Positions 1,200-26,732 of a stretch of 28,645 nt of DNA are shown piece by piece. Below the pieces are notes generated by a model. That model made no database searches, was not told the DNA's origin, and saw only the letters and a program-made list of their open reading frames with translations. The position numbers and the translations under genes were made by a program. Location: positions 1 through 28,645 of the IMG/VR virus record IMGVR_UViG_3300037499_000324, one strand, 5' to 3'. Source of the stretch: a virus. Lineage: Duplodnaviria > Caudoviricetes. The stretch's first letter is position 1. The number at the start of each line of letters is the position of its first letter.

Positions 1200-1435
1200 A
1201 GTGCCGCAGCTGCCCGACCGACATCCACTGGGTGAAAAGCGCCACGACCGGCAAGCCAGCCCCGATCGAAACGAGGGAACACCCCGACGGGAACATCACC
1301 ATCCGGGACGGCCGCTACCACGTGCTCACCGGCGTCGAACTCGAGGCCGCCCGCAACGACCCCGACGAGCCGCTCCACCTCAACCACTTCGCCACCTGCC
1401 CGAAGGCGGCCCGACACAAGAAAGCACCAGCATGA
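1196..1435 (+). CDS. Small Cys/His (Zn-binding) phage protein
   Basis: MKCRSCPTDIHWVKS...HFATCP (CxxC...HxxxC); ATGA coupling on both sides. Confidence 0.75.
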   Translation: MKCRSCPTDIHWVKSATTGKPAPIETREHPDGNITIRDGRYHVLTGVELEAARNDPDEPLHLNHFATCPKAARHKKAPA

Positions 1436-2940
1436 GCCCGACCCCAGCGAAACCCATTTCGGCGACGAAAGACGTCCGCCTCGACACCCTCACCCCCCAC
1501 CCGGAGAACCCGCGGCGGGCAGACACGACCGCCCTCCGGGAGAGCCTCGCCCGGTTCGGCCAGTACCGGCCGATCGTCGTCCAGAAGGCCACGAACCACA
1601 TCATCGCCGGGAACCACACCGCCCGAGCCGCAGCCGAGGAAGGCTGGACGACCGTCAAAGCGACCATCATCGACGTCGACGACGCCACCGCCCGAGCCAT
1701 CCTCGTCGCCGACAACCGCCTCGCCGACCTCGGCACCTACGAACAGGCCGACCTCACCACCCTCCTCCGCACCATCGACCGGGAGGGCGGCCTCGGAGGC
1801 ACCGGCTACACCACCCAGGACCTCGCCGACCTCCTCGCCCCCACCCGAGCGGCGAGCAAACCCCTCACCGACAGCTTCCTCGTCCCCCCCTTCTCCGTCC
1901 TCGACAGCCGCCAGGGATACTGGAGGAGCCGCAAAGCCGAATGGACCGCCCTCGGCATCCGGTCAGAACTCGGCCGAGAAGGCGACCTCGCAATGGCGTC
2001 GCTCAGCGGCCGGGTGCCCGACTACTACGACCAGAAGCGGACCATCGAGGCGTACCTCGGCAGGACCGTCCCCAACCCCGAATTCGAGGAACGCTACCTC
2101 CGCCTCCCCGACAACGAGTCGACGATGGGCGCCACCGGCACCTCGATCTTCGACCCCGTCCTCACCGAAGTCGCCCTCCGCTGGTTCGCCCCCACCGGCG
2201 GCCACATCCTCGACCCGTTCGCCGGCGGCAGCGTCCGAGGCGTCGTCGCCAGCCTCCTCGGCCACACGTACACCGGCGTCGACCTCAGCGAGGCACAGAA
2301 CCAGGCGAACCGAGACCAGTGGACCGCCATCGACGCCGCCCTCCGAGGAGACAGCGGCCCCCCACCGACATGGGTCACCGGAGACGCCGCCACCGACATC
2401 CCCGACGAGCCCGCCGACATGATCCTGACCTGCCCCCCATACTTCGACCTGGAGAAGTACAGCGACGACCCCGCCGACCTGAGCAACATGACCTGGCCCG
2501 CCTTCCGCAAAGCCTACGAGACCGCCATCCAAGCCGCCCTCGCCCGACTGAAGAACCACCGGTTCGCCGTCTGGGTCGTCAGCGACGTCCGGGACAAGGC
2601 CGGCCACTACCGGGGACTCACCGCCGAAACCGTCCGCATCTTCCAGAAGGCCGGCGCCCACCTCTACAACGAGGCGATCCTCGTCACCCCCACCGGGTCG
2701 CTGGCGGTCACCGCAGGCAAACAGATGAAGGCGGGACGGAAGCTGGGCCGCCAACACCAGAACGTCCTCATCTTCGGGAAGGGCGAAGGGCCCATCGCCG
2801 AGGCCGTAGAACGCGACTTCACCGAGGCGTGGCGGCTGGGCCGCAACCACGACAACATCCTCGTCTTCGCGAAGGGCGACGGCCGCAAAGCCGCCGACCA
2901 ACTGCCCGACATCAACGTCGACGACCTCCCCCAACTATGA
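1432..2940 (+). CDS. ParB/Srx-like N-terminal domain fused to an amino (N6-A/N4-C) DNA methyltransferase
   Basis: The N-terminus LTPHPENPRR...SLARFGQYRPIVV...IIAGNHT...ADNR is ParB_N-like. The C-terminus has SAM motif ILDPFAGGS followed by catalytic-type TCPPY. ATG at 1432 is coupled to the upstream stop. Confidence 0.85.
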   Translation: MSPTPAKPISATKDVRLDTLTPHPENPRRADTTALRESLARFGQYRPIVVQKATNHIIAGNHTARAAAEEGWTTVKATIIDVDDATARAILVADNRLADLGTYEQADLTTLLRTIDREGGLGGTGYTTQDLADLLAPTRAASKPLTDSFLVPPFSVLDSRQGYWRSRKAEWTALGIRSELGREGDLAMASLSGRVPDYYDQKRTIEAYLGRTVPNPEFEERYLRLPDNESTMGATGTSIFDPVLTEVALRWFAPTGGHILDPFAGGSVRGVVASLLGHTYTGVDLSEAQNQANRDQWTAIDAALRGDSGPPPTWVTGDAATDIPDEPADMILTCPPYFDLEKYSDDPADLSNMTWPAFRKAYETAIQAALARLKNHRFAVWVVSDVRDKAGHYRGLTAETVRIFQKAGAHLYNEAILVTPTGSLAVTAGKQMKAGRKLGRQHQNVLIFGKGEGPIAEAVERDFTEAWRLGRNHDNILVFAKGDGRKAADQLPDINVDDLPQL

Positions 2941-4515: not shown

Positions 4516-4715
4516 CCCCGAAACGCGGCACCCGAGCAGAGGGCGTGAGGAGCCGGGTGGCCCGCACCGCCGCCGAACGGGTCACCCGCAGCCCGGGCCG
4601 GCCCGGCTGGACGACCGTCCGCCAACACGGCGACGCCTGGCTCGAACACGACGCCTGCGGCCGCACCTTCTTCCAGGCGACCGACCAGCGGGCCCACGAG
4701 AAGACCTGCACGTGA
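4512..4715 (+). CDS. Small basic protein with possible Zn finger
   Basis: HDACGRTF...RAHEKTC; coupled start and stop. Confidence 0.6.
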   Translation: MTPKRGTRAEGVRSRVARTAAERVTRSPGRPGWTTVRQHGDAWLEHDACGRTFFQATDQRAHEKTCT

Positions 4716-5455
4716 TCGCCGTCAGCCGCCACCAGGGCACCCTCGTCGTCCGCGACGACCTCACGCCGGGAGGGACGAAAACCCGGGCCATCGCCACCCT
4801 CCTCGAGGACACCGCCGACGACGTCGCCTACGCCGGCCCCGCCTACGGCTACGCCCAGGTCGCCCTCGCCGTCGGAGCCCGAGCGGCCGGCAAGACCGCC
4901 CACGTGTTCGTGGCCAGGAGGAAACACCGCCACCCGAGAACCCTGGAAGCCAGCGACGCAGGAGCCCGCATCCACGAACTCGCCCCCGGCTACCTGAGCC
5001 AACTGCAACACCACGCCCGAACCTGGGCCGAAGCGAACGGAGCAACCGTCCTCCCCTTCGGCTTCGACACCCCCGCCTTCGCCGAAGCCCTCGCCGCCGA
5101 CATCAGCGACGACCTGAGAAGCCTCCCCGACCCGCCAGCCGACGACGCCGACCTCGCCGAACGGGTCACGACCCTCACCCGCCCACGCGAGGTGTGGGTG
5201 GCAGCGGGCAGCGGCACCATCAGCCGAGCCCTGCAACGAGTCTGGCCGGAGGCGGAACACCACGCCGTAGCCGTCGGCAAGACCGTCGCGAACCCGGGAC
5301 GAGCCACCCTCCACGAGGCGCCGGAACGGTTCGAGGACGACGCCCGCCAGCCGCCCCCCTACCCGAGCACCAGCAACTACGACGCCAAAGTCTGGCAGTT
5401 CGTCGCCCACCGGCCCGACCCGGCCGGCCGCCTCGTCTGGAACGTCGCCGGCTGA
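4712..5455 (+). CDS. PLP-dependent enzyme, fold type II (Trp synthase beta/ACC deaminase-like superfamily)
   Basis: VRDDLTPGGTKTR (Schiff-base Lys motif), VWVAAGSGT (phosphate-binding Gly loop), YDAKVW, and C-terminal LVWNVAG. Confidence 0.8.
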   Translation: MIAVSRHQGTLVVRDDLTPGGTKTRAIATLLEDTADDVAYAGPAYGYAQVALAVGARAAGKTAHVFVARRKHRHPRTLEASDAGARIHELAPGYLSQLQHHARTWAEANGATVLPFGFDTPAFAEALAADISDDLRSLPDPPADDADLAERVTTLTRPREVWVAAGSGTISRALQRVWPEAEHHAVAVGKTVANPGRATLHEAPERFEDDARQPPPYPSTSNYDAKVWQFVAHRPDPAGRLVWNVAG

Positions 5456-7935: not shown

Positions 7936-9540
7936 GTGCCCGCCACCGCAGCACAGATCGCCGCCCTCGAAGCCGACCCCCTCACCTGGCGGGCCACCCT
8001 CTTCGAGAAATACCTGACCGACACCCAGGGCCGCCTCGTCCCCGACGCCCCACACCACCGCCGCTACTGGACGTGGCTCTGGTCGATCGAACGAGGCAAG
8101 CGGAGCCCCGCCTTCGTCGGCATCTGGGCCCGAGGAGGAGCCAAGAGCACGAACGCCGAACTCGGCACCATCGCCGTCGGCGCCCGACGAGCCCGCCGCT
8201 ACGCCTGGTACGTCAGCGACACCCAGGACCAGGCCGACGACCACGTCGAAACCATCGGCCAAATGCTCGAAAGCCGCCAGGTCGCCACCTTCTACCCCGA
8301 CCTCGCCGCCCGCCGCGTCGGCAAATACGGCAGCAGCCGAGGCTGGCGACGCAACCGCCTCCGCACCCGCTCAGGCTTCACCGTCGACGCCATCGGCCTC
8401 GACCGGGCCAGCCGAGGCGTGAAGGACGAGGAGGTCCGCCCCGACTTCTTCATCCTCGACGACATCGACGACCAGGACGACACGGCCGCAGCCACAGAGA
8501 AGAAAATCAACACCCTCACGAAAACGATCATCCAGGCCGGCAGCGAGGACCGGGCCATCACAGCCATCCAGAACCTGGTGAAACCGGGCGGCGTCTTCGA
8601 CCAGCTGGCAACCGGCGACGCCGACTACCTCGCCAACCGGATCCTCAGCGGCCCCATCCCCGCCATCGAGGACCTCACCTACGAAACCCGCATCACCGAC
8701 GAAGGCCCCCGCATCGAAATCACCGGAGGCACCCCAACGTGGATCGGCCAGGACCTCGCCCGCTGCCAGGACGACATGAACGAGGTCGGCATCACCGCCT
8801 GGCTGCAGGAGGCCCAACACGAAGTCGCCGACCCGCCCGGCGGCATGTTCGACCACATCGACCTCGCCAGCCTCCGCCGCCAACCCGAACACATCCCGCC
8901 CCTCACCCGAGTCGTCTGCTGGGTCGACCCGGCCGTCACGAAGACCGACCAGAGCGACGCCCACGCCATCCACGTCGCCGGCATCGACGGAGACCGGGAG
9001 ACCGGCACCATCTGGGACCTCTGGTCGTGGGAGCAGCGAGCCACCCCACTCGCCAGCCTGAAAACCGCCATCCGGGAGGGAGCCCGCTGGGGCGCCAACT
9101 ACGTCGGCGTTGAAACCGACCAGGGCGGCGACACGTGGAAAGTCGTGTTCCGAACGGCGAAGAAGCGAGCCGTCGAGGAGGCCGAAGCGGCCGGCGACAC
9201 CGACCTCGCCGCCCGCATCCGACACCTCGCCTTCAAGGAAGCGAAGGCCGGCCAGGGCGACCAGCCGAAGGCGCACCGGGCCAGCATGATGCTCGCCGAC
9301 TACGAACGGCCCGGCTGGACCATCCTCCACGCCATCGGCACCCACACCCTCCTCGAACGGGCCCTCAAACGGTTCCCGAAGACGAAACCCCTCGACCTCG
9401 TCGACGCCAAATACTGGGCGTGGGACGACCTCCGGAACGGCCACGAGGTCGCCGCCGGCGGAGGCGACGACCCCGACGACGAACCCGACGAGGACGACGA
9501 CCCGTACGCCGCCGCCCGCAGCAGCCGCCTCTGGGCCTAA
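7936..9540 (+). CDS. terL: Terminase large subunit
   Basis: Walker A-like WARGGAKST, Walker B FFILDD, nuclease motifs WVDPA..SDAHA, GVETDQGG and DLVDA; upstream of the portal. Confidence 0.9.
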   Translation: MPATAAQIAALEADPLTWRATLFEKYLTDTQGRLVPDAPHHRRYWTWLWSIERGKRSPAFVGIWARGGAKSTNAELGTIAVGARRARRYAWYVSDTQDQADDHVETIGQMLESRQVATFYPDLAARRVGKYGSSRGWRRNRLRTRSGFTVDAIGLDRASRGVKDEEVRPDFFILDDIDDQDDTAAATEKKINTLTKTIIQAGSEDRAITAIQNLVKPGGVFDQLATGDADYLANRILSGPIPAIEDLTYETRITDEGPRIEITGGTPTWIGQDLARCQDDMNEVGITAWLQEAQHEVADPPGGMFDHIDLASLRRQPEHIPPLTRVVCWVDPAVTKTDQSDAHAIHVAGIDGDRETGTIWDLWSWEQRATPLASLKTAIREGARWGANYVGVETDQGGDTWKVVFRTAKKRAVEEAEAAGDTDLAARIRHLAFKEAKAGQGDQPKAHRASMMLADYERPGWTILHAIGTHTLLERALKRFPKTKPLDLVDAKYWAWDDLRNGHEVAAGGGDDPDDEPDEDDDPYAAARSSRLWA

Positions 9541-9581: not shown

Positions 9582-10934
9582 ATGACCACACCGACCCACG
9601 GAAGCCTCTGCACCGGCTACGGCGGCCTAGAACTCGCCCTCGCAGGCACCGGTGCCCTGAAGTGGGTGGCCGAGATCGACGCCGACGCCAGCCGAGTCCT
9701 AGCCGACCGCTTCCCCGGCACGCCCAACCTCGGCGACCTCAAGACAGCCGACCCCGAGCCGGTCGACGTCATCACCGCAGGATTCCCCTGCCAGCCGCTC
9801 AGCACCGCCGGACGACGAAAGGGCATGGACGATGACCGATGGATCTGGGACGACATCGAGGCGCTTGTTGGCCGAATGGAGCCACGACCAGGACTGCTCC
9901 TCCTCGAGAACGTGCCAGGGCTGCTCACTGCAAACGGCGGGGACGCTATGGCCCGAGTCGTTCACGGCCTGGCCGGCCTCGGCTACGTGGGAACCTGGAG
10001 GACTCTACGAGCAGCCGACGTCGGCGCCTGCCACGGACGACGCCGGGTCTTCATCGCTGCTGCCCACGCCGAACGCCTTCGAGAGCGACCCGAGCGAGGA
10101 GATGGTCGAGGAGATGAGGGAGGCGGGCATCGACCCGGACGCCCGCCTCTACCTGCCCAACCGGAAGTGGCACACCCAACGGACACTGAGACGGACGATC
10201 GCGGCGCTCGCCTCCTCCCCACGCCAGCAGCCTGGGACGGAAGCCGAGGTCCCGACTACGCCCGCCAGCGGGAGCGAGCCGCCACTGGAAGCGGAGGCGA
10301 CGACCTCACCACCGCCGTAGCGAAGCTCCTCCCCACACCCCAAGCCCGAGACGAGAAGGAGTGGACCGACAGCCGCGCCACCCCCGACACAATCGGCCGG
10401 GCCCGAGGAGCGGGCGGCGCCGGCAGCCTCGTGGATCTCCCGAAACTGCTGCCGACCCCGACCAGCGTCATGGGATCAGGAGGTAACACCAGCCGCAGCG
10501 GCGACCGCAGCGACGAACTCCTTCTCGGAGGGCTCCTCCGCCAGGTGGGCCGAAACCTTCCCACCCCGACGGCAGCCGACGCCAAGATGGCCCGCAACGA
10601 GACGGCCTGGCGGGCCGACGGGACAACAGGGACCGGCCGCACCATGAGCGACGTCGCCCACGCCGAGATGTGGGGCGACTACGTCGACGCCATCAACCGG
10701 CACATGAACGCCACCGGCCAGGAGGCACCCGACCCCGTAGACGAGGGCCGCCGGCTCAACCCCGCCTTCGTCGAGTGGATGATGATGCTCCCACCCGGCT
10801 GGGTCACCGACATCCCCGGCCTCACCCGAGGCGCACAACTCCGCATCCTCGGCAACGGCGTCGTGCCGGCCCAGGCCACCACCGCCTACGCCGAGCTCCT
10901 CACCCGCCTCCAAAGGCCGCACCACTCCCCTTGA
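9582..10934 (+). CDS. DNA (cytosine-5) methyltransferase
   Basis: Motif I SLCTGYGG, IV GFPCQ, VI ENV, VIII HGRRRVF, and IX/X RLNPAFVEWMM..LGNGV. Four LPTP repeats in the variable region. Confidence 0.92.
   Translation: MTTPTHGSLCTGYGGLELALAGTGALKWVAEIDADASRVLADRFPGTPNLGDLKTADPEPVDVITAGFPCQPLSTAGRRKGMDDDRWIWDDIEALVGRMEPRPGLLLLENVPGLLTANGGDAMARVVHGLAGLGYVGTWRTLRAADVGACHGRRRVFIAAAHAERLRERPERGDGRGDEGGGHRPGRPPLPAQPEVAHPTDTETDDRGARLLPTPAAWDGSRGPDYARQRERAATGSGGDDLTTAVAKLLPTPQARDEKEWTDSRATPDTIGRARGAGGAGSLVDLPKLLPTPTSVMGSGGNTSRSGDRSDELLLGGLLRQVGRNLPTPTAADAKMARNETAWRADGTTGTGRTMSDVAHAEMWGDYVDAINRHMNATGQEAPDPVDEGRRLNPAFVEWMMMLPPGWVTDIPGLTRGAQLRILGNGVVPAQATTAYAELLTRLQRPHHSP
9832..10320 (+). CDS. Overlapping +1-frame ORF inside the C5 methyltransferase
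   Basis: Reads ...PESFTAWPASATW..LYEQPTSAPATDDAGSSSLLPTPNAFE...TLRRTIAAL and contains its own LLPTP unit. Start uncertain. Confidence 0.45.
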   Translation: MTDGSGTTSRRLLAEWSHDQDCSSSRTCQGCSLQTAGTLWPESFTAWPASATWEPGGLYEQPTSAPATDDAGSSSLLPTPNAFESDPSEEMVEEMREAGIDPDARLYLPNRKWHTQRTLRRTIAALASSPRQQPGTEAEVPTTPASGSEPPLEAEATTSPPP

Positions 10935-10959
10935 CGGCCAGCCGCAGCGGAGGCATAGT
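10931..10959 (+). promoter_or_regulatory. Housekeeping sigma70-type promoter
   Basis: TTGACG (10931-10936), 17-nt spacer, CATAGT (10954-10959); SD AGAGGAG before GTG 10997. Confidence 0.65.
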
Positions 10960-10996
10960 GACCTCACGGACGGACAACCAAACAAGAGGAGCCACC

Positions 10997-11191
10997 GTGA
11001 GCACAGAGAAGACCGACCCCCGCTGCGGCACAGCCGCCGGGTACAACGCCCTCGGGACGGAGCACCGCCGAACCTGCGAACCCTGCAAGGCCGCATCACG
11101 AAAGTGGATGCGAGGCTTCCAGCGAGCCGCCCGCACCGGCACCCACCTCGCATGGGCGGAGGCGAACCCGCCGAGGACCGTCTCGGCATGA
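10997..11191 (+). CDS. Small Zn-binding protein (CGT..GY...CxxC)
   Basis: RCGTAAGYN...HRRTCEPCKAA; strong SD. Confidence 0.75.
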   Translation: MSTEKTDPRCGTAAGYNALGTEHRRTCEPCKAASRKWMRGFQRAARTGTHLAWAEANPPRTVSA

Positions 11192-11454
11192 GCGGCCCCA
11201 ACGACTGGCTGGACTTCACTGACCCCGAGCAGGTCGCAGGAGCCGTAGCCGCACAGATTGAGGACCTCACCCCGACCGAGCGGATCACCGTCCTCAGCGA
11301 CGCCCTCCGGGAGGAAACAGCCGCCGCCACCTTCGGACCCCGCCAACTTGAAATCCTCGACTGGATGCTCGAAACCGCCGTTGAGAACAACCCAAGCGAC
11401 GAGGAGATCACCTGCCTCCAGGACAAAGTGCGCCGCCTGCGAGGGACGCCGTGA
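11188..11454 (+). CDS. Hypothetical protein
   Basis: ATGA-coupled (MSGPNDWLDF...). Confidence 0.7.
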   Translation: MSGPNDWLDFTDPEQVAGAVAAQIEDLTPTERITVLSDALREETAAATFGPRQLEILDWMLETAVENNPSDEEITCLQDKVRRLRGTP

Positions 11455-11753
11455 GCCGCCGACGAGCGGGCAGCGTCCGCTTCGACCCCTACTGGAAGAT
11501 CCAATGGTGGGACGCCACCAGCCTCGCCTGGCGCGACCTCCAGGAGGCCATCCACGACGAGGAGATCGCCATCGTCAGCGCCCGAGCCGAAGCCACCCAC
11601 CGCCAGACCAGCACCCGCCTCATGCGGATCACCGAGACCGGCCGGGAGCCGACCCGCGAGGTCCGCTGGCCCGCCGCCGAGGCGGAGGAATACTGCGCCA
11701 CCCACGACCTGTACAACTGCCCATTCGCCCACGACCCGAGGAGAATCCGATGA
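11451..11753 (+). CDS. Hypothetical protein
   Basis: GTGA-coupled; C-terminal CxxHxxxxCxxxH. Confidence 0.7.
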   Translation: MSRRRAGSVRFDPYWKIQWWDATSLAWRDLQEAIHDEEIAIVSARAEATHRQTSTRLMRITETGREPTREVRWPAAEAEEYCATHDLYNCPFAHDPRRIR

Positions 11754-12040
11754 CCGGACCCGACGCCCGCCAACTCGCCCACCACTTCGAGGAGGGCCGC
11801 CGCGGGGAAACCAACTTCACCGCCAAGCTGTTCGCCCTCCTCGTCAAAGCCGACCCCGACAACCGGGAGCGCATCCGCGCCGGCTTCCCCAACGAGGTCG
11901 CCTGGTGGGAAACCTGGATGGCCAGCCCCAACGGGGAGCAGTGGATGCAAGCCCACCTCGACGGCCGCCTCGACCACAACGACTACGAGCGGTTCGCCAT
12001 CCGAGCCACAGCCCGCACCCTCATCGGAGCCACGCCATGA
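11750..12040 (+). CDS. Hypothetical protein
   Basis: SD GAGGAG, ATGA overlap; motif FTAKL..LLVKADPDNRERIRAGFP. Confidence 0.75.
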   Translation: MTGPDARQLAHHFEEGRRGETNFTAKLFALLVKADPDNRERIRAGFPNEVAWWETWMASPNGEQWMQAHLDGRLDHNDYERFAIRATARTLIGATP

Positions 12041-12222
12041 GCGGCCGAGAGAAGCGAGCCCTCGCCATCCTCGAACGGGCCGGCATCGAACTCCAGAACA
12101 GCAAACCCGACGACGGCCCGCGCCGCTGGTTCGCCGGCCCGGCGAGCCCGACCATTCGAGGCCTGGAGCAACTGGAGACCGTTGCCCACTACGTCGACCT
12201 CGCCCACCGGAGGATCAAGTGA
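12037..12222 (+). CDS. Hypothetical protein
   Basis: ATGA-coupled (MSGREKRALAIL...). Confidence 0.65.
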   Translation: MSGREKRALAILERAGIELQNSKPDDGPRRWFAGPASPTIRGLEQLETVAHYVDLAHRRIK

Positions 12223-12629
12223 GCGGCAGCGGCACCCGCCACTGGGTGCTCGACCCCGCCGGCCACCGGGAGACCGCAGCCGTCGACCGGCCGAAGACCG
12301 GCGACGACGCCTCAGACTTCTTCGGCGGAGAACCCGGCGTGTGGATCGTCATGGACGACCACCTCGACCCCGACGAGTGGATCTGCGACGTTTGCAACGC
12401 CACCATCCTCACCCGCTGGGGAGACGAACCGATGCCCGTACCCATGCTGGGCAGCAACGCCCTCTGCGGCGACTGCCGACACGCCGTCGAAGCGACCGAG
12501 GGGCCGTGGCCAGCCGCCGGCTGCACCTGCGCCGCCTGCGGCGTCCGGTTCCTCATCTGGGCGGACGAGATCGCCGCCGCCTACAACCTTCGAGCGACGG
12601 CCCGCCACCCGCGCCCGGACCTCAACTAG
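12219..12629 (+). CDS. Cys-rich (Zn-binding) protein
   Basis: CDVC, CGDC and CTCAAC motifs; GTGA-coupled. Confidence 0.75.
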   Translation: MSGSGTRHWVLDPAGHRETAAVDRPKTGDDASDFFGGEPGVWIVMDDHLDPDEWICDVCNATILTRWGDEPMPVPMLGSNALCGDCRHAVEATEGPWPAAGCTCAACGVRFLIWADEIAAAYNLRATARHPRPDLN

Positions 12630-12670
12630 AGTCCGGTCCGAAAGGGCAAGGTCATTCAGCCCGAGCGAGA

Positions 12671-12693
12671 GAGCGCCCCCACGAGGGGCGCTC
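12671..12693 (+). terminator. GC hairpin, putative terminator of the small-gene cassette
   Basis: GAGCGCCCC-cacga-GGGGCGCTC, a perfect 9-bp stem. Confidence 0.55.
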
Positions 12694-12694
12694 C

Positions 12695-12717
12695 CGCGTC
12701 TAGCATCCCCACCCATG
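12695..12717 (+). promoter_or_regulatory. Leaderless promoter CGCGTC-TAGCAT-N8-ATG
   Basis: TANNNT box 8 nt before an ATG with no SD; the motif recurs at 15346, 19650, 23024, 24526 and 26751. Confidence 0.65.
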
Positions 12718-12966
12718 ACGGACACCAGGACCTGCCCGCTGTGCGGCCTTGAGGCCGACCCGGCCACGACCGCGGAGCACGCCGAGCGAACCCACGCCGC
12801 AGCCCTCGCCGAACTCGAGGCCCGAGCAAGAGCACCCCGCCCCGACGCCGCCGACAAGCTCGCAGCCCACCTGACCGACACCCACGGCTACGCCATCATC
12901 GACCTCGGGCCGCCCCCCGGCGACGAACCCCGCCGGCCGGCGATGAGGAGGGGCGGCTACCTGTGA
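12715..12966 (+). CDS. Small Zn-finger-like protein
   Basis: CPLC...HAERTH; the stop overlaps the portal start. Confidence 0.7.
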   Translation: MTDTRTCPLCGLEADPATTAEHAERTHAAALAELEARARAPRPDAADKLAAHLTDTHGYAIIDLGPPPGDEPRRPAMRRGGYL

Positions 12967-15362: not shown

Positions 15363-15887
15363 ACCGACTTTGACCGCGCAGCCGCCGAGCAGACCCTGAA
15401 GGACGCCGGCGCCAAGAAGGCGAAGAACAGCGCCTGGTGGACCCTCCCCTTCAACGGCGAGGACGGCACACCGGCGCGGGCCAACGGAGCCAAAGCGGCA
15501 CTCGCAGCCCTGGAACGCGGCCCGGGAGCGGCCGCGCCAGCCGTAGCGGCGAGCGACCCCGAGGCGGAGGAGAAAACGGGGAAGGGCACCGGCGAGCCCG
15601 GGACCGCCACCGAGGTCGCCGCCGGCGAGACCGCCACCCTCGACGAGGACGGCGACGGCGAGCCGGCCGCCAGGGTGGGCGTCCCCACACAGCCCGAGAA
15701 GGGCGGACTCACCCCCGTCGAGCGGGCAGCCTTCGACGACAAGGGGCCCGCCGCCGCAGCGGCGAAGACCCGACCGGCGGGCCCGAGCCACACCGGCGCC
15801 GACATCAAGGCCGGCATCGGCATCCCCACCGAACCCGACCGGGGCGGCCTGAGCGACCTTGAGAAAGCACTCCACGGCGTGACATGA
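15360..15887 (+). CDS. Hypothetical low-complexity head-region protein
   Basis: Ala/Gly/Glu rich, with an internal duplicated motif; ATGA-coupled to the capsid gene. Confidence 0.75.
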   Translation: MTDFDRAAAEQTLKDAGAKKAKNSAWWTLPFNGEDGTPARANGAKAALAALERGPGAAAPAVAASDPEAEEKTGKGTGEPGTATEVAAGETATLDEDGDGEPAARVGVPTQPEKGGLTPVERAAFDDKGPAAAAAKTRPAGPSHTGADIKAGIGIPTEPDRGGLSDLEKALHGVT

Positions 15888-18307
15888 ACCGGCTCCGGCG
15901 ACTTTTGGAAGCCACCGGGACGGCGGAGGGGACGACAGAAAGCTTCTCAGACCCGACGAGCCTGAGCGGACAGGTCGAGGCCGTCCACCGCGCCTTCTCC
16001 GCAGCGTTCCCGAGCGACGACGACGGCCCCTACAACTACGTCGAGGAGGTGTACGACGACGCCGTCCTCGCCCGCATCGGCAAGGCCACCTTCTCCGTCC
16101 CCTACACCTACACCCCGGACGCCGACGACGCCGTCACCTTCGGCGAGCAGACCCGAGTCCGAGTCCAAATCGTCGCGGAGCCGGTCACCGAAGCCGCACC
16201 AGCGGGAGCGCCCGCCGGGACCGCGACCACACCGGCGGGCGCCCCGGAACGGTTCACGAGCGCCACGAACCTGGGCGGCACCATCCTCGAAAGCCTCGAC
16301 GAGGGCGAGGGCTGGGTGTGGCGAGTCACCCTCGTCCGCCCCGGCATCAGCCACAACGGCCGCCGGTACACGCCGGAGGTCCTGGGCGAAGCCATCCAGC
16401 TGTACGAGGGCGTCCGAGCCTTCGACGGCCACCGAGACCAGGCGGAGCGGAAGCGGAGCGCCATCGCCAACCTGGCCGGCCACTACGAGAACGTCCTCCA
16501 GGAGGGCGACGGCCGCCTCACCGCCGACTTCCGCATCAGCAGCGCCAGGGACGACATCCGCCAGCAGTTCCTGAGCGCCTGGAAGGCCCAACGCCCGAAC
16601 CTGTTCGGATTCAGCCACGACGTCAGCGCCTTCGCCGAAGCCGCCACCGTGGGAGGGCGCCGCATCAGCGACGTCCGGAAAATCGTCGAAGTCCACAGCG
16701 TGGACATCGTCGCCGACCCGTCAGCCGGCGGGCGGCTAGAGCGCCTCGTTGCATCGAGGCAAGAGGAGGACCCAATGGAACTCACTGACTTCCTCCGTCG
16801 CCTTCGCGCCGGGGAGCTCACCAGCGAGCAACTGACCGAGGCGTACGAGGCGCACCCCGAGTGGGAGCAGATCGCAGAAGCGATCGACGAGGCCCGCACC
16901 ACCGCGGGCGAACCCGCCGCGGGCGACCCGCCGGCGGCACCGACCCGAGTCCAGGAGGCCGGCGGCCTCGGCCAGACCATGGTCGGCCTGCTCGTCAGGG
17001 CCGCCACCGACGGCATGCCCGAGGCGGCCGTCACGCAGATCAGCGAAGCCCTCGCGGAGCGGGAGACCGTCACCGAGGAGGACATCACGACCCTCGTTGA
17101 GAGCACCAGAACCATCTGGGACGCCGCCCTCGCCGCCGCCCCGAGCCCGCTGCCGGGCCAGGGCAACGTCCAGGTCGGCCAGGAGGACGAGGAGAAGCGC
17201 CGCCACGCCCTCGACGCCATGATCGCGGGCGAACGCGAAGTGGAGGGCACCCCCGCCTTCCGGTCGCTGAAAGAGGCGTACGTCGCCTTCACCGGCCGCA
17301 ACCCCTACGCGATGGGCGAGGAGGACTTCAACAGGTGGATCCTCGCCGAAAGCGTCGGCGGCATCCCGTACGCCGGGGCGCAGAGGCTGAGCGAGTCGAT
17401 CGAGAGCGGCACCTGGGCCGAAGCGTTCGGCGACAGCATCCGCCGGCGCCTCGTCCGGGAGTACGCCCTCCCCGAGCTCAACGCGTGGCGCCAGATCGTC
17501 AGCGACATCGGCAACCTCACCGACTTCCGCACCAACCGGCGCGTGAGGATCGGCGGCTACGACGTCCTGCCGACCGTCGGCGAGGGAGCGCCCTACCAGC
17601 CGCTCACCAGCCCCGAGGACGAGGAAGCCACCTACGCCCCGACGAAGAAGGGAGGCACCGAGGACTGGACACTCGAGGCCATCGCCAACGACGACCTGAC
17701 CAGCCTGCGGAAGATCCCCCGCTCGCTGGGCCGGGCGGCAGCCCTCACCCTCTACCGGGCGATCTTCAACACGACCATCGCTGGCAACGCGACGGTCTAC
17801 GACAGCGTCGCCCTCTTCCACGACGGCAGCCACGCCAACGACAACGCGACGACCCCCCTCGCCGAGGCGGGCATCGCGCTGCTCCGCCAGCGCATGGTCC
17901 GCCAGAAGCAGCAGGGCGAGGACTCAGGGTTCATCGGCATCACGCCGAGGTTCCTCCTCACCCCGCCCGAGCTCTACGTGACGGCCTTCAAGCTGACACG
18001 GAGCAACGTGGCCGTCGTCGGCAGCGACGAGAACGCGACGACCCCGAACCCCTGGCAGGGCCTGATGCCGATCGAAGTGCCGACGTTCACCGACACGGAC
18101 GACTGGTTCCTGGTCGCCGACCCGGCGAGCGTGGAGACCATCGAGGTCGGCTTCTACCAGGGCCGCCAGGAGCCCGAACTGTTCGTCCAGGACCAGCCCA
18201 ACGTGGGCGCCGTGTTCACAGCGGACAAGTTCACCTGGAAGATCCGCCACATCTGGGGCCTCGCAGTCATCGACTACCGCGGCTTCCAGCGAGGCGTCGG
18301 CTCATAG
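15884..18307 (+). CDS. Prohead protease-scaffold-major capsid fusion (Mu gpT-like capsid)
   Basis: Protease-like GISHNGRRY..AFDGH..GFSH..SVDIVADPSAGG, an acidic helical linker, and a capsid C-terminus PRFLLTPPEL...WFLVADP..IEVGFYQGRQEPELF...KIRHIWGLAVIDYRG. Confidence 0.88.
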   Translation: MNRLRRLLEATGTAEGTTESFSDPTSLSGQVEAVHRAFSAAFPSDDDGPYNYVEEVYDDAVLARIGKATFSVPYTYTPDADDAVTFGEQTRVRVQIVAEPVTEAAPAGAPAGTATTPAGAPERFTSATNLGGTILESLDEGEGWVWRVTLVRPGISHNGRRYTPEVLGEAIQLYEGVRAFDGHRDQAERKRSAIANLAGHYENVLQEGDGRLTADFRISSARDDIRQQFLSAWKAQRPNLFGFSHDVSAFAEAATVGGRRISDVRKIVEVHSVDIVADPSAGGRLERLVASRQEEDPMELTDFLRRLRAGELTSEQLTEAYEAHPEWEQIAEAIDEARTTAGEPAAGDPPAAPTRVQEAGGLGQTMVGLLVRAATDGMPEAAVTQISEALAERETVTEEDITTLVESTRTIWDAALAAAPSPLPGQGNVQVGQEDEEKRRHALDAMIAGEREVEGTPAFRSLKEAYVAFTGRNPYAMGEEDFNRWILAESVGGIPYAGAQRLSESIESGTWAEAFGDSIRRRLVREYALPELNAWRQIVSDIGNLTDFRTNRRVRIGGYDVLPTVGEGAPYQPLTSPEDEEATYAPTKKGGTEDWTLEAIANDDLTSLRKIPRSLGRAAALTLYRAIFNTTIAGNATVYDSVALFHDGSHANDNATTPLAEAGIALLRQRMVRQKQQGEDSGFIGITPRFLLTPPELYVTAFKLTRSNVAVVGSDENATTPNPWQGLMPIEVPTFTDTDDWFLVADPASVETIEVGFYQGRQEPELFVQDQPNVGAVFTADKFTWKIRHIWGLAVIDYRGFQRGVGS

Positions 18308-21031: not shown

Positions 21032-23026
21032 GTGGCCGCCCCCGAACTCGTCACCGCCGACACGCAGAACGGCGGGGCCGTCAGCGGCACGTCGGCGACA
21101 GTGCCCAAGCCGACCAACCTGGCGAACGGCGACGTCGCCTGGGTGAGCACCTGCATGTGCTTCGACGGCGGCGACATGATGCTCCCCACCGGCTTCGTCG
21201 AGGTGTTCGCCTTCTCGAACTCCACCCCCGCCGACCACCAGATCGCCGGCTACAAGGTGATCACCGACGCCGCAGGCGAGCCCGCCAACTACGTGACCAC
21301 CGTCGACACCAGCCAGACCCGACTCGTCTCGGCGTCGGCCCGGATCACCGGCTGCGACCTCACCGACCCGATCGACGTGTTCGCCACCGACGGCGCCGGA
21401 TCGTCCAACGCCATCCCCCAAGTCACCACCACCGTCGACGAGACGCTCCTCCTGGCGACGGTCTACGTCCGCACCGGAGGCACCCCCGCCACGTTCACGC
21501 CGCCGTCCGGGTTCGCCGAGGAGTGGGACTTCTTCTTCGGCGCCGGCGGCCTCAACGTCACCGGGTCGGGCCCGCGCCTCTCCCACGGCGGAGCGACCGA
21601 CGAGAAGGCCACGGCGGGCCTGACCGCGACCGGCACGTACGCCGACACCTCGGCGAGCAGCCCACTCCTCCGCACCCAAGTAGCGTTTCAGCCGGGAGGC
21701 GGAGGCACCCTCTTCGAGGAGGCGATGGCCGGAGCGGTCACGCCCGCGGCCGCGCTCGCACGCGAGGCCCACCTTCACCGAGGCGGCAGCGTCGGCCCGA
21801 CCGGAGCAGCGCAGAGGACGACGACGAAGACCCCGGCGGGGACGGCAACACCCGCAGGGACGGCGACCCGGGAGACGGCCAAACGGCACGCCGGAGCGGC
21901 CACCCCCGCCGGCGGCGAACAGCACACCCCGCAACTCACCCGAGGCGGCACCGTCACCCCGGCGGGGACGGCAACACGGACCGCAGAGAAGACCCACACC
22001 GCCACCCTCGGAAGTGCGGCCGCACTTCGCCGGACGACCGCCAAGCCGACAGCGGGGACGGTCACCCCGACGAGCCTGCTCGCCACGACCAAACGGAAGC
22101 TGCTGGCCATCGCCGCCGCCCTCGGCCTCGCCGGCAACGTTTCACGTGAAACACGCCAGCCCCACACCGCCACCCTGAGCCCAGCAGGAACCCTCCGCCG
22201 CGACCTCGCCCAACTCCTCGACAGCAGCATCACCCCGACGGGAGACACCACGAGGGCGACGGCAGCGAGCCACGAGGGGACGGCAGGACCCGCGGGGAAC
22301 GTTTCACGTGAAACAGCCACGAGACCGGCGGGGACGATCACCCCGACGGGAACAGCAGCGAGGACGGCGAGGACCGCCATCGCGGGCGCCCTCGCGGGCG
22401 CGGGCGCCCTGGCGCGGAGGACGGCGAAGACCCTCGCGGGAGCGGCCGGCGCCGCCGGGACCGTGGCCACCGAACTCACCGGCACCATCCAACAGCTGCT
22501 CGAGGGCGTCCTGGGAGCGGCGGGAGCGCTCCGGAGGCGGACCAGCAAGGCGCAGACGGGAACCGTGGCACCAGCGGGCGCCCAGGGGCCCACAACCGTC
22601 GCACAGGCCCACCAGGGGACCGTAGAGCCGGCCGGGGCGGCAACAACCACCAGAACAGTCGCCCGCCTCGTACAGGGAGCCCTAGCGGCCGCAGCGACGC
22701 TTGTGAGACGGGCGGGGAAGCGGACGGAGGGGACGGCGGCCCCGGCGAGCACGCTCACGAGGACGACGAGAGCGGCCAGGGCGAGCACCCTCGACGTAGC
22801 AGGCCACCTGACGAAGACCGCAGCGAAGGCCCTCGCAGGCGCGGCCGCCGCGGCCGGCAGCCTCGCCCGCCAGGTGTTCGACTTCGTCGCGCCGCCCATC
22901 GCGGCCCGCATCCCCCACCAGGGCCGGCCGACACAGACGGTGCCGAGCCCGACGACGCCGCCGGTGCCGGGCGCCGGGACGGAGGCGACGGTGCCGCACC
23001 AGGGCAACGACGGCGGACCCGTCTAG
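21032..23026 (+). CDS. Fibre-like structural protein: N-terminal beta domain plus long Ala/Thr/Gly/Arg degenerate repeats
   Basis: About 230-aa globular N-terminus, then recurring GT.TPAG...R.T.K units of about 18 aa. Confidence 0.7.
   Translation: MAAPELVTADTQNGGAVSGTSATVPKPTNLANGDVAWVSTCMCFDGGDMMLPTGFVEVFAFSNSTPADHQIAGYKVITDAAGEPANYVTTVDTSQTRLVSASARITGCDLTDPIDVFATDGAGSSNAIPQVTTTVDETLLLATVYVRTGGTPATFTPPSGFAEEWDFFFGAGGLNVTGSGPRLSHGGATDEKATAGLTATGTYADTSASSPLLRTQVAFQPGGGGTLFEEAMAGAVTPAAALAREAHLHRGGSVGPTGAAQRTTTKTPAGTATPAGTATRETAKRHAGAATPAGGEQHTPQLTRGGTVTPAGTATRTAEKTHTATLGSAAALRRTTAKPTAGTVTPTSLLATTKRKLLAIAAALGLAGNVSRETRQPHTATLSPAGTLRRDLAQLLDSSITPTGDTTRATAASHEGTAGPAGNVSRETATRPAGTITPTGTAARTARTAIAGALAGAGALARRTAKTLAGAAGAAGTVATELTGTIQQLLEGVLGAAGALRRRTSKAQTGTVAPAGAQGPTTVAQAHQGTVEPAGAATTTRTVARLVQGALAAAATLVRRAGKRTEGTAAPASTLTRTTRAARASTLDVAGHLTKTAAKALAGAAAAAGSLARQVFDFVAPPIAARIPHQGRPTQTVPSPTTPPVPGAGTEATVPHQGNDGGPV
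22139..22152. promoter_or_regulatory. parS: parS site 1
   Basis: Perfect palindrome GTTTCACGTGAAAC; 15/16 match to the consensus TGTTTCACGTGAAACA. Confidence 0.85.
22301..22314. promoter_or_regulatory. parS: parS site 2
   Basis: Second identical GTTTCACGTGAAAC, 162 bp downstream. Confidence 0.85.
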
Positions 23027-25851: not shown

Positions 25852-26424
25852 ATGAGCACGAGCAACGGCCGACACCTGACCCGGGCAGACATCCTCGCCA
25901 GCCCCGACCTTCCCGAGGAGACCCTCGAAGTGCCCCGCTGGGGCGGCACCATCCTCGTGAAGGCGGTCCCCACCAGCCACCCCCGCTACATCCAGTACTG
26001 GAGCGGGAAGGCGAGGGAGGAACTGAGCGACGAGGAGAAGCAGGTCCGACGCCTGGTCGGAGCGGCGATCATGGCCGCCCACGACGTCGACACCGGAGAA
26101 CGCCTGTTCAAGTTCACCGACGCCGACGAGCTCCGGGAGAAGCACTACAACAGCGTCATCCAGGTCGCGAACCTGGGCCTCACCCTCGCCGGCAACACCG
26201 AGGACGAGGAGCAGGCCCTCACCCTCAACGCCCTCCTCAGAGTCGCGAACTACGCCCAGGCCCACGCATGGCCCGACGGCCAGCAGGACCAACTCGCCGC
26301 CATGCTCACCAGCCTCATAACGCCCGACGAGAACGTGGAGGCGGAGATCATCGACGACCCCGACGACGAGGACGACGAGGGCGCTGACCCCGAGCCGGCC
26401 GCCGTCCCTTTAGCCGAGGCCTGA
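25852..26424 (+). CDS. Tail assembly chaperone (gpG-like)
   Basis: LTRADILASPDLPEETLEVPRWGGTILVK...DTGERLF; lies between the tube and tape measure genes. Confidence 0.8.
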   Translation: MSTSNGRHLTRADILASPDLPEETLEVPRWGGTILVKAVPTSHPRYIQYWSGKAREELSDEEKQVRRLVGAAIMAAHDVDTGERLFKFTDADELREKHYNSVIQVANLGLTLAGNTEDEEQALTLNALLRVANYAQAHAWPDGQQDQLAAMLTSLITPDENVEAEIIDDPDDEDDEGADPEPAAVPLAEA

Positions 26425-26732
26425 GGCCCCCCACCCACCACTACAACGACCTGGTCGAGGAGCACGAACGGTTCCTCGCCACCCACCCGGCGGTGGAGGA
26501 CATGTACCAGCTGAGCGTCCTCCACCTCCACCGCCTGCCCTACGAGGTCATCGCCGACGCGCAACGACGAGGAGCCGACCACCAGGTGTACCTCGCCCTC
26601 GCCATGCTGAGCCGGGAGGCGAAACGCCAGCGGACGGCGAACCGGCGGGCAGCGTGGACGGCCGCCAACCCGAAGTGGGCCCGCATCCACAACAGGGTCG
26701 ACGCCGCCGCAGCCGCCCTGAGCAACCTCTAA
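26406..26732 (+). CDS. -1 frameshift extension of the tail chaperone (gpGT-like)
   Basis: Slippery C CCT TTA at 26406-26412. The -1 frame is open from 26409 to TAA at 26732 and includes ORF 26493..26732. Confidence 0.75.
   Translation, partial: PFSRGLRPPTHHYNDLVEEHERFLATHPAVEDMYQLSVLHLHRLPYEVIADAQRRGADHQVYLALAMLSREAKRQRTANRRAAWTAANPKWARIHNRVDAAAAALSNL

Follow-up and report, generated by a model that had tools for sequence, protein, structure and literature searches.

Partition sites on non-integrated phage genomes are known from the cluster A mycobacteriophages, P1 and N15, all of which encode their own ParA and ParB and carry a private parS beside these genes. The non-integrating Bacillus phage phi29 carries five parS sites and uses the Spo0J protein of its host for entry into the prespore (PMC2731898). 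The phi29 genome (EU771092) contains five sites within 2 mismatches of parS; three of these are in frame (V-S-R-G-T/I) in the late genes 10, 12 and 15. The use of a host parS by a phage, and its concealment in a virion gene, are already known from phi29. The original prediction for the DNA analysed here, namely that a phage recruits the host ParABS and SMC machinery through parS sites of its own, is consequently less new than supposed, since phi29 uses the host Spo0J on its own parS. On bacterial chromosomes, the 16-bp parS consensus is TGTTTCACGTGAAACA (PMC7383237); one chromosomal parS together with its par operon stabilises unstable plasmids (PMC7022226), and one parS in Corynebacterium leads to ParB spreading over 32 kb and to SMC action (PMC7083940).

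The window, i.e. the whole stretch of DNA analysed, is an entire virus contig of 28,645 bases (G000; linear, CheckV completeness 40%, approximately 70% GC). Its genes are, in order, a ParB_N-methyltransferase, small and large terminase, portal, head-morphogenesis protein, protease-capsid fusion, tail assembly chaperone and tape measure, a content from terminases to tape measure that is therefore the late region of a tailed phage. By comparison with the relative G001, approximately 14 kb of early region are absent; the full genome is probably about 42 kb, about a third of it being absent from the contig, and an integrase or a ParB of this phage could consequently sit in the missing early region. 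Other features of the window were: a threonine-dehydratase-like gene (PHROG 7093; 4712-5455), which directly follows the small terminase and is close to the ParB_N-methyltransferase; a C-5 cytosine methyltransferase and approximately eight small ORFs with no assigned function between the large terminase and the portal (9582-12966), where G001 and G003 likewise have small ORFs; and the tail assembly chaperone followed by a short overlapping-frame ORF ahead of the tape measure (25852-26732), possibly the usual programmed frameshift. The protease-capsid fusion (807 aa, Phage_capsid_4) has no close counterpart among cultured phages, the best being 32% identical.

Table 1 Positions of the features discussed (in the window unless another record is named).
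Feature	Position	Strand	Remarks
parS site 1	22139..22152	.	exact 14-bp palindromic core; common 18-mer 22136-22153; in frame V370-S-R-E-T
parS site 2	22301..22314	.	exact 14-bp palindromic core; common 18-mer 22298-22315; in frame V424-S-R-E-T
664-aa late-region protein, likely virion-associated	21032..23026	+	bears both parS sites; no Pfam/PHROG match
ParB_N-N6/N4 DNA methyltransferase fusion	1432..2940	+	Pfam/PHROG; unlikely as the phage's own parS binder
Protease-capsid fusion	15884..18307	+	variable N-terminal linker, with the parS word in G001, L261 and L262, not in the window phage
Terminase large subunit	7936..9540	+	C-terminal extension with the parS word in the G003 orthologue is absent here
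parS sites of Arthrobacter phage Emotion (L576, OQ709216.1)	4448, 6605, 18001, 19680, 20042, 25114, 44985		exact sites

The parS words and the repeat gene that carries them

A scan of the whole window found GTTTCACGTGAAAC exactly at the two positions of Table 1 and at no other place with up to 3 mismatches, so the two perfect copies originally predicted are confirmed. Both sites match the 16-bp consensus at 15/16 positions and its core at 14/14. They are read in frame as N-V-S-R-E-T, and the codons, which had been called strongly atypical, are the only GTT (2/40 Val), TCA (2/30 Ser) and CGT (2/40 Arg) codons of the 664-aa gene; given VSRET, the chance of this five-codon set is 3e-7 per site (codon usage from 16 other ORFs of the window). 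Markov models of order 2 to 5 predict 0.6-3e-5 copies per window, against the two observed. The sites are 162 bp apart, the length of three 18-residue repeat units, and the two repeat copies are identical at 18/19 bases over the site, compared with 32-46% in the flanks, which is the background for a three-unit repeat lag (42%). Both sites recur with 0 differences in a contig from the probable source run, which is not independent evidence. Because the third frame of the word holds a stop, inside genes it can be read only as VSRET or FHVK. Judged from their letters, both sites are chromosomal-type parS with an exact core, and selection acts on the DNA itself, as had been proposed from the atypical codons and the diverged flanks.

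The 664-aa protein consists of an N-terminal domain followed, in its second half, by Thr/Ala/Gly/Arg-rich 18-aa repeats whose motif (G-x-x-x-R-x-T) can accommodate VSRET. Pfam and PHROGs searches assigned it no name, the N-terminal domain retrieved only unnamed viral clusters from the ESM Atlas, and a direct search of viral contigs confirmed no relatives of the protein. VSRET is present twice in 1/38 repeat-protein homologues (protein level only). The earlier description as a virion structural gene holds in part: the position between head and tail genes and the Laminin_G_3 domains of some homologues make a virion-associated protein likely, and the structural role, which has no Pfam or PHROG name behind it, is deduced from these.

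Relatives of the phage and its likely host

Relatives of the window phage were reached via capsid, tail-tube and terminase searches, and a scan of them for parS, integrase and parA, which had been suggested as a check, supported the original prediction in part. The exact word recurs in four lineages of close relatives, spread over four genes (repeat gene, capsid linker, terminase tail and replication initiator). G001, which is the same phage as G002 and G189, bears an exact site in the orthologous repeat gene and a second in the N-terminal linker of the capsid; L261 and L262 (mutually 85% identical) each have an exact site at the capsid-linker location; in G003 (= L263) the large terminase has a C-terminal extension with one exact site, and this extension is missing from the terminases of the window and of G001; and in G187 the exact site is in the linker of an O-like replication initiator (L487:3989-4990). 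The latter site perhaps adjoins the phage origin, as chromosomal parS lie near oriC. The window phage and its close relatives have 1-2 copies per genome, inside genes. At protein level only, VSRET was found in the same capsid linker in 3/50 capsid homologues; where close relatives have VSRET, all seven places (15 loci) are spelled with the exact parS letters, and homologues encoding VSRET with non-palindromic codons, which would have spoken against the sites, were not found among them. Matches to the word were limited to close lineages (6/174 loci, 5/123 loci and 1/44 whole records in successive searches); no site was present in the 22 of 40 kb searched of L260, a close relative, or in the rows sister to G003 (G004, G005, L265, L267, L268 and L273; fragments of 3-26 kb). 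In the sequences compared, the word is retained while its location shifts, every time into a protein segment of low constraint. Retention with changing place argues for a position-independent DNA function, and against the regulation of one gene; such a function would fit a centromere-like loading site.

G003 has a 144-bp terminal repeat and the ends of G001 are bridged by G189 with a 152-bp overlap, therefore both genomes appear circularly closed; despite the closed ends, their CheckV completeness is 68% (G003) and 59% (G001). Neither has a match to PF00589, PF07508, PF13614, PF01656, PF17762 or PF08535. Tyrosine integrase, serine recombinase, HTH_ParB and KorB had no match in G000, G001, G003, G187 or G189 (the early region of G000 being outside the contig); CbiA/ParA was found in 0/5 of these records and AAA_31 in 0/3 (G000, G001, G003). 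The view that the phage has no ParA or HTH-bearing ParB is thus upheld in the window and extends to the two closed relatives: the features expected of a phage-encoded ParABS system, namely an own ParA Walker ATPase and an own ParB with CTPase motif and HTH beside parS, were not detected in these sequences. The gene layout of the closed relatives is mostly co-oriented and, with its O-like initiator, lytic-looking, and no repressor or plasmid-type maintenance gene was identified in them. G003 also encodes a small SAP-domain protein before the capsid gene (L432:11614-11958) and an SLH/Ig-like/beta-helix protein in the virion module (L432:16575-18065).

The ParB_N-methyltransferase gene is located approximately 19 kb from the parS sites. 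Its ParB_N aligns with Spo0J over the N-terminal fold only and the likeness ends before the HTH, in agreement with the earlier remark that no HTH is evident; in addition, it reads IIAGNHT where Spo0J has IVAGERR, and the GxxR arginine is absent. The same domain was present in 16/297 loci, 13 of them from other phages, without parS in the available DNA, and ParB_N-methyltransferase fusions are described as common in phages (PMC12704722).

The host likely belongs to the Actinomycetota, and probably to the Acidimicrobiia, on sequence grounds. G003 encodes WhiB, and in a quick capsid tree five capsids of Actinomycetota genomes form the sister group (SH-aLRT 99, no bootstrap) of the 19-row clade with the window. 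Three of these genomes have titles at the level of Acidimicrobiia or below, one belongs to the same class sample, and one is Catelliglobosispora. WhiB, the GC content and this tree point to Actinomycetota, not to an endospore-forming Bacillota host. The exact word was found in 49/81 genomes of the class of an Acidimicrobiaceae MAG, in 1-3 copies each, compared with 0/81 for the reversed control word, and 6/6 loci examined were among jag, gidB, parA and parB; the phage word is therefore the centromere of the likely host, the host assignment itself being indirect. The chromosomal host type claimed for the sites is thus sustained both by the consensus and by the occurrence of this word at parAB in the class of the likely host. 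Three other Actinomycetota MAGs with distant capsid relatives had no exact word in their incomplete genomes, and searching the DNA of 401 genomes from the likely host class gave no CRISPR-spacer-like or close prophage match (approximately 2 candidates per genome scored; a weak search).

Distribution among viral records and cultured phages

The word is present in approximately 8,400 stretches of IMG/VR (extrapolated from 134 in 1/64 parts), compared with approximately 190 and 29 stretches for control palindromes of the same composition; contig redundancy inflates all these counts, those of the word and of the controls. The flanking bases outside the query were T and A, as in the consensus, in 115/162 matches, and at the 162 sampled sites the longest stop-free stretch was in the VSRET frame in 97 and in the FHVK frame in 56. 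We compared a parS-positive sample (50 of approximately 126 contigs, taken mostly from the longer of the first 80 loci; 49 analysed) with a control sample (50 of 120 loci in list order, with giant-virus, several short and one very long record skipped; 49 analysed). Considering all records, integrase did not differ (3/49 parS-positive, 5/49 controls); in the records at least 90% complete it was found in 0/13 parS-positive and 4/7 controls (Fisher p=0.007; a small, non-random sample). HTH_ParB or gidB was found in 0/50 parS-positive virus records (47 sampled plus G000, G001 and G003). A tyrosine integrase was present in 5 and absent from 39 of the 44 parS-negative relatives.

Searching parS-centred 30-mers against the cultured phages of INPHARED retrieved 194 and 518 records at E up to 10, mostly unconfirmed as exact, led by phages of Listeria, Clostridium, Bacillus, Microbacterium, Arthrobacter, Pseudomonas and Gordonia. 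These parS-like matches included Listeria P100-like and Gordonia Woes-like phages, Microbacterium and Arthrobacter groups, Lactobacillus phages, microviruses and Pseudomonas phiPsa374-like phages, the latter with the match in the terminal repeat. The hosts of the P100-like, Woes-like, Microbacterium, Arthrobacter, phiPsa374-like and Lactobacillus phages are presumably non-sporulating. In scanning cultured phages for sites, the control palindrome at 2 mismatches was disregarded, as it overlaps parS itself.

Among 97 phages with a capsid related to that of Arthrobacter phage Emotion, fourteen phages of Arthrobacter and Microbacterium were picked across subgroups. Exact parS number 7 in Emotion, 6 in JasmineDragon and 6 in VroomVroom (some in frame as VSRET), and none of the three has a recombinase; the remaining 11/14 have a recombinase and no parS within 1 mismatch. 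PP978861.1 and OQ938592.1 are the other two integrase-less AZ4-type records with exact parS. In Emotion, a recombination directionality factor is still annotated although there is no integrase. Emotion and VroomVroom form turbid plaques despite having no integrase, according to the cluster AZ preprint (bioRxiv 2025.05.26.655371), whose main text contains 0 occurrences of ParB or CACGTG, so that the sites of these phages are undescribed there. Emotion, JasmineDragon and VroomVroom are probably one lineage on one host species, and so they count as one evolutionary event. The mutual exclusion of parS and integrase is compatible both with parS replacing integration and with the purging of ectopic parS from prophages.

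Readings of the sites and comparison with known systems

It is very probable that the host ParB binds the two phage sites. Partition or positioning of a non-integrating phage genome by the host machinery is the main purpose to which we assign them, with a confidence somewhat above even. After injection and circularisation of the phage DNA, host ParB-CTP clamps would load at the sites and spread over several kb; the host ParA, pole anchors and SMC would act on the ParB-coated circle, positioning the phage DNA and delivering copies to the daughter cells, and the phage would thus stay in the cell lineage in a non-integrated carrier or pseudolysogenic state, in place of integration.

That host ParB would instead aid the lytic cycle, with no role in inheritance, by compacting incoming DNA, placing it at the pole or nucleoid, or loading SMC to untangle replicating copies, is possible, if rather unlikely. 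The mostly co-oriented closed relatives with their O-like initiator and no identified repressor speak for it, as does the G187 site inside the initiator gene, the place where lambdoid origins lie. The same is true of the 30-mer BLAST matches, which include Listeria P100 and phiPsa374-type phages (sites not individually confirmed), phages that we take to be virulent. Against it are the turbid plaques of two integrase-less, parS-rich AZ4 phages and the role in the phi29 precedent, which is segregation.

We give a low probability to titration, by which the multiplied phage genomes would sequester host ParB and so prevent segregation of the host chromosome or cell division. Genomes of the likely host class have only 1-3 exact sites, compared with two per phage copy, so a replicating phage would soon outnumber them; a ParB sponge would presumably be a dense array of non-coding sites, but here there are 1-2 sites per genome, in genes. 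Equally doubtful is the proposal that ParB spreading silences late genes, or marks the phage DNA as chromosome-like and dampens defences such as MksBEFG/Wadjet. ParB does repress neighbouring genes at an inserted parS (PMC7022226), and MksBEFG lowers plasmid copy number in Corynebacterium (PMC7083940). Silencing of late genes, an idea of the original prediction, is nevertheless weakened because in relatives the site can lie within the initiator or the tail of the terminase, and overall its place wanders among initiator, terminase, capsid and repeat gene; furthermore, no sigma-70-like promoter turned up near the sites in the 19.5-25 kb region, a scan of little power given the GC-rich genome. 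As for escape from defence, no paper linking parS to Wadjet was found in the parts of the open-licence literature covered.

That the phage itself encodes the reader, be it the ParB_N-methyltransferase or an HTH protein of the missing early region that went unrecognised, is very improbable. The ParB_N domain is present, about a third of the genome is missing and relatives encode small HTH proteins; nevertheless, the domain departs from Spo0J in its motif and has no HTH, it occurs in 13 other-phage loci without parS in the available DNA as one of a common type of phage fusion, no HTH_ParB or KorB match appeared in the five records, and the word is identical to the centromere of the host class. 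It can practically be set aside that the words arose by chance, through selection for VSRET in the protein, by a recent duplication of the repeat or through contamination with host DNA: the repeat motif is compatible with VSRET and duplication could explain the second copy, but these stand against the codon probability, flanks at background identity, recurrence of the exact word in non-homologous genes of relatives and the lack of gidB in the 50 parS-positive virus records.

Partition by the host machinery may extend well beyond the window phage. We tentatively propose, at a confidence somewhat short of even, a protein-free alternative to integration, in which thousands of phages of sporulating and non-sporulating hosts write the host centromere into their genes, swap it between genes and persist extrachromosomally via the host ParABS-SMC, the gain of parS going with the loss of integrase, as in the Arthrobacter AZ4 phages. 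If true, this would explain turbid-plaque phages with neither integrase nor partition genes. Provided that the host ParB reads the sites, phages drawing on the chromosome segregation machinery of the host would be recognisable by a word of 14 bp that gene annotation overlooks, and this word would serve as a sequence marker of a non-integrating lifestyle and as a candidate answer to the persistence of integrase-less turbid-plaque phages. Emotion, VroomVroom and JasmineDragon are cultured models with harmless hosts for a direct test by synonymous recoding. In the main texts of the open-licence literature searched, we found neither a survey of host-type parS across phages nor any account of it in actinophages, and likewise no paper on site turnover between genes or on a tie to integrase loss.

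Compared with chromosomal ParABS (e.g. that of Corynebacterium glutamicum, with parS TGTTTCACGTGAAACA, a ParB-CTP clamp and SMC loading), the 14-bp core is identical; the difference is that the word of the window is on a phage without parAB, away from the host origin, in 1-2 copies that move between genes. In contrast to the cluster A mycobacteriophages, P1 and N15, the window and the closed relatives yielded neither a ParA nor a ParB-HTH. The AZ4 phages Emotion, VroomVroom and JasmineDragon share the exact parS and the lack of a recombinase, and are not close kin of the window phage. The likeness is to phi29 (and Nf), in which the host chromosomal parS is on the phage and partly embedded in virion genes; phi29 is a 19-kb protein-primed linear phage of an endospore former, with prespore entrapment involving Spo0A boxes, whereas the window phage is a terminase/portal phage of approximately 42 kb, with an O-like initiator (in its relatives) and a likely Actinomycetota host. 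Endospores are not known from Acidimicrobiia, so the purpose of the sites must differ from the prespore entrapment of phi29. Three points go beyond phi29, namely that the host is likely a non-sporulating actinobacterium, that the site has moved among four genes, and that its presence is tied to the loss of integrase: an idea that until now rested on spore entrapment by phi29 would reach likely non-sporulating Actinomycetota, with turnover of dual-coded sites.
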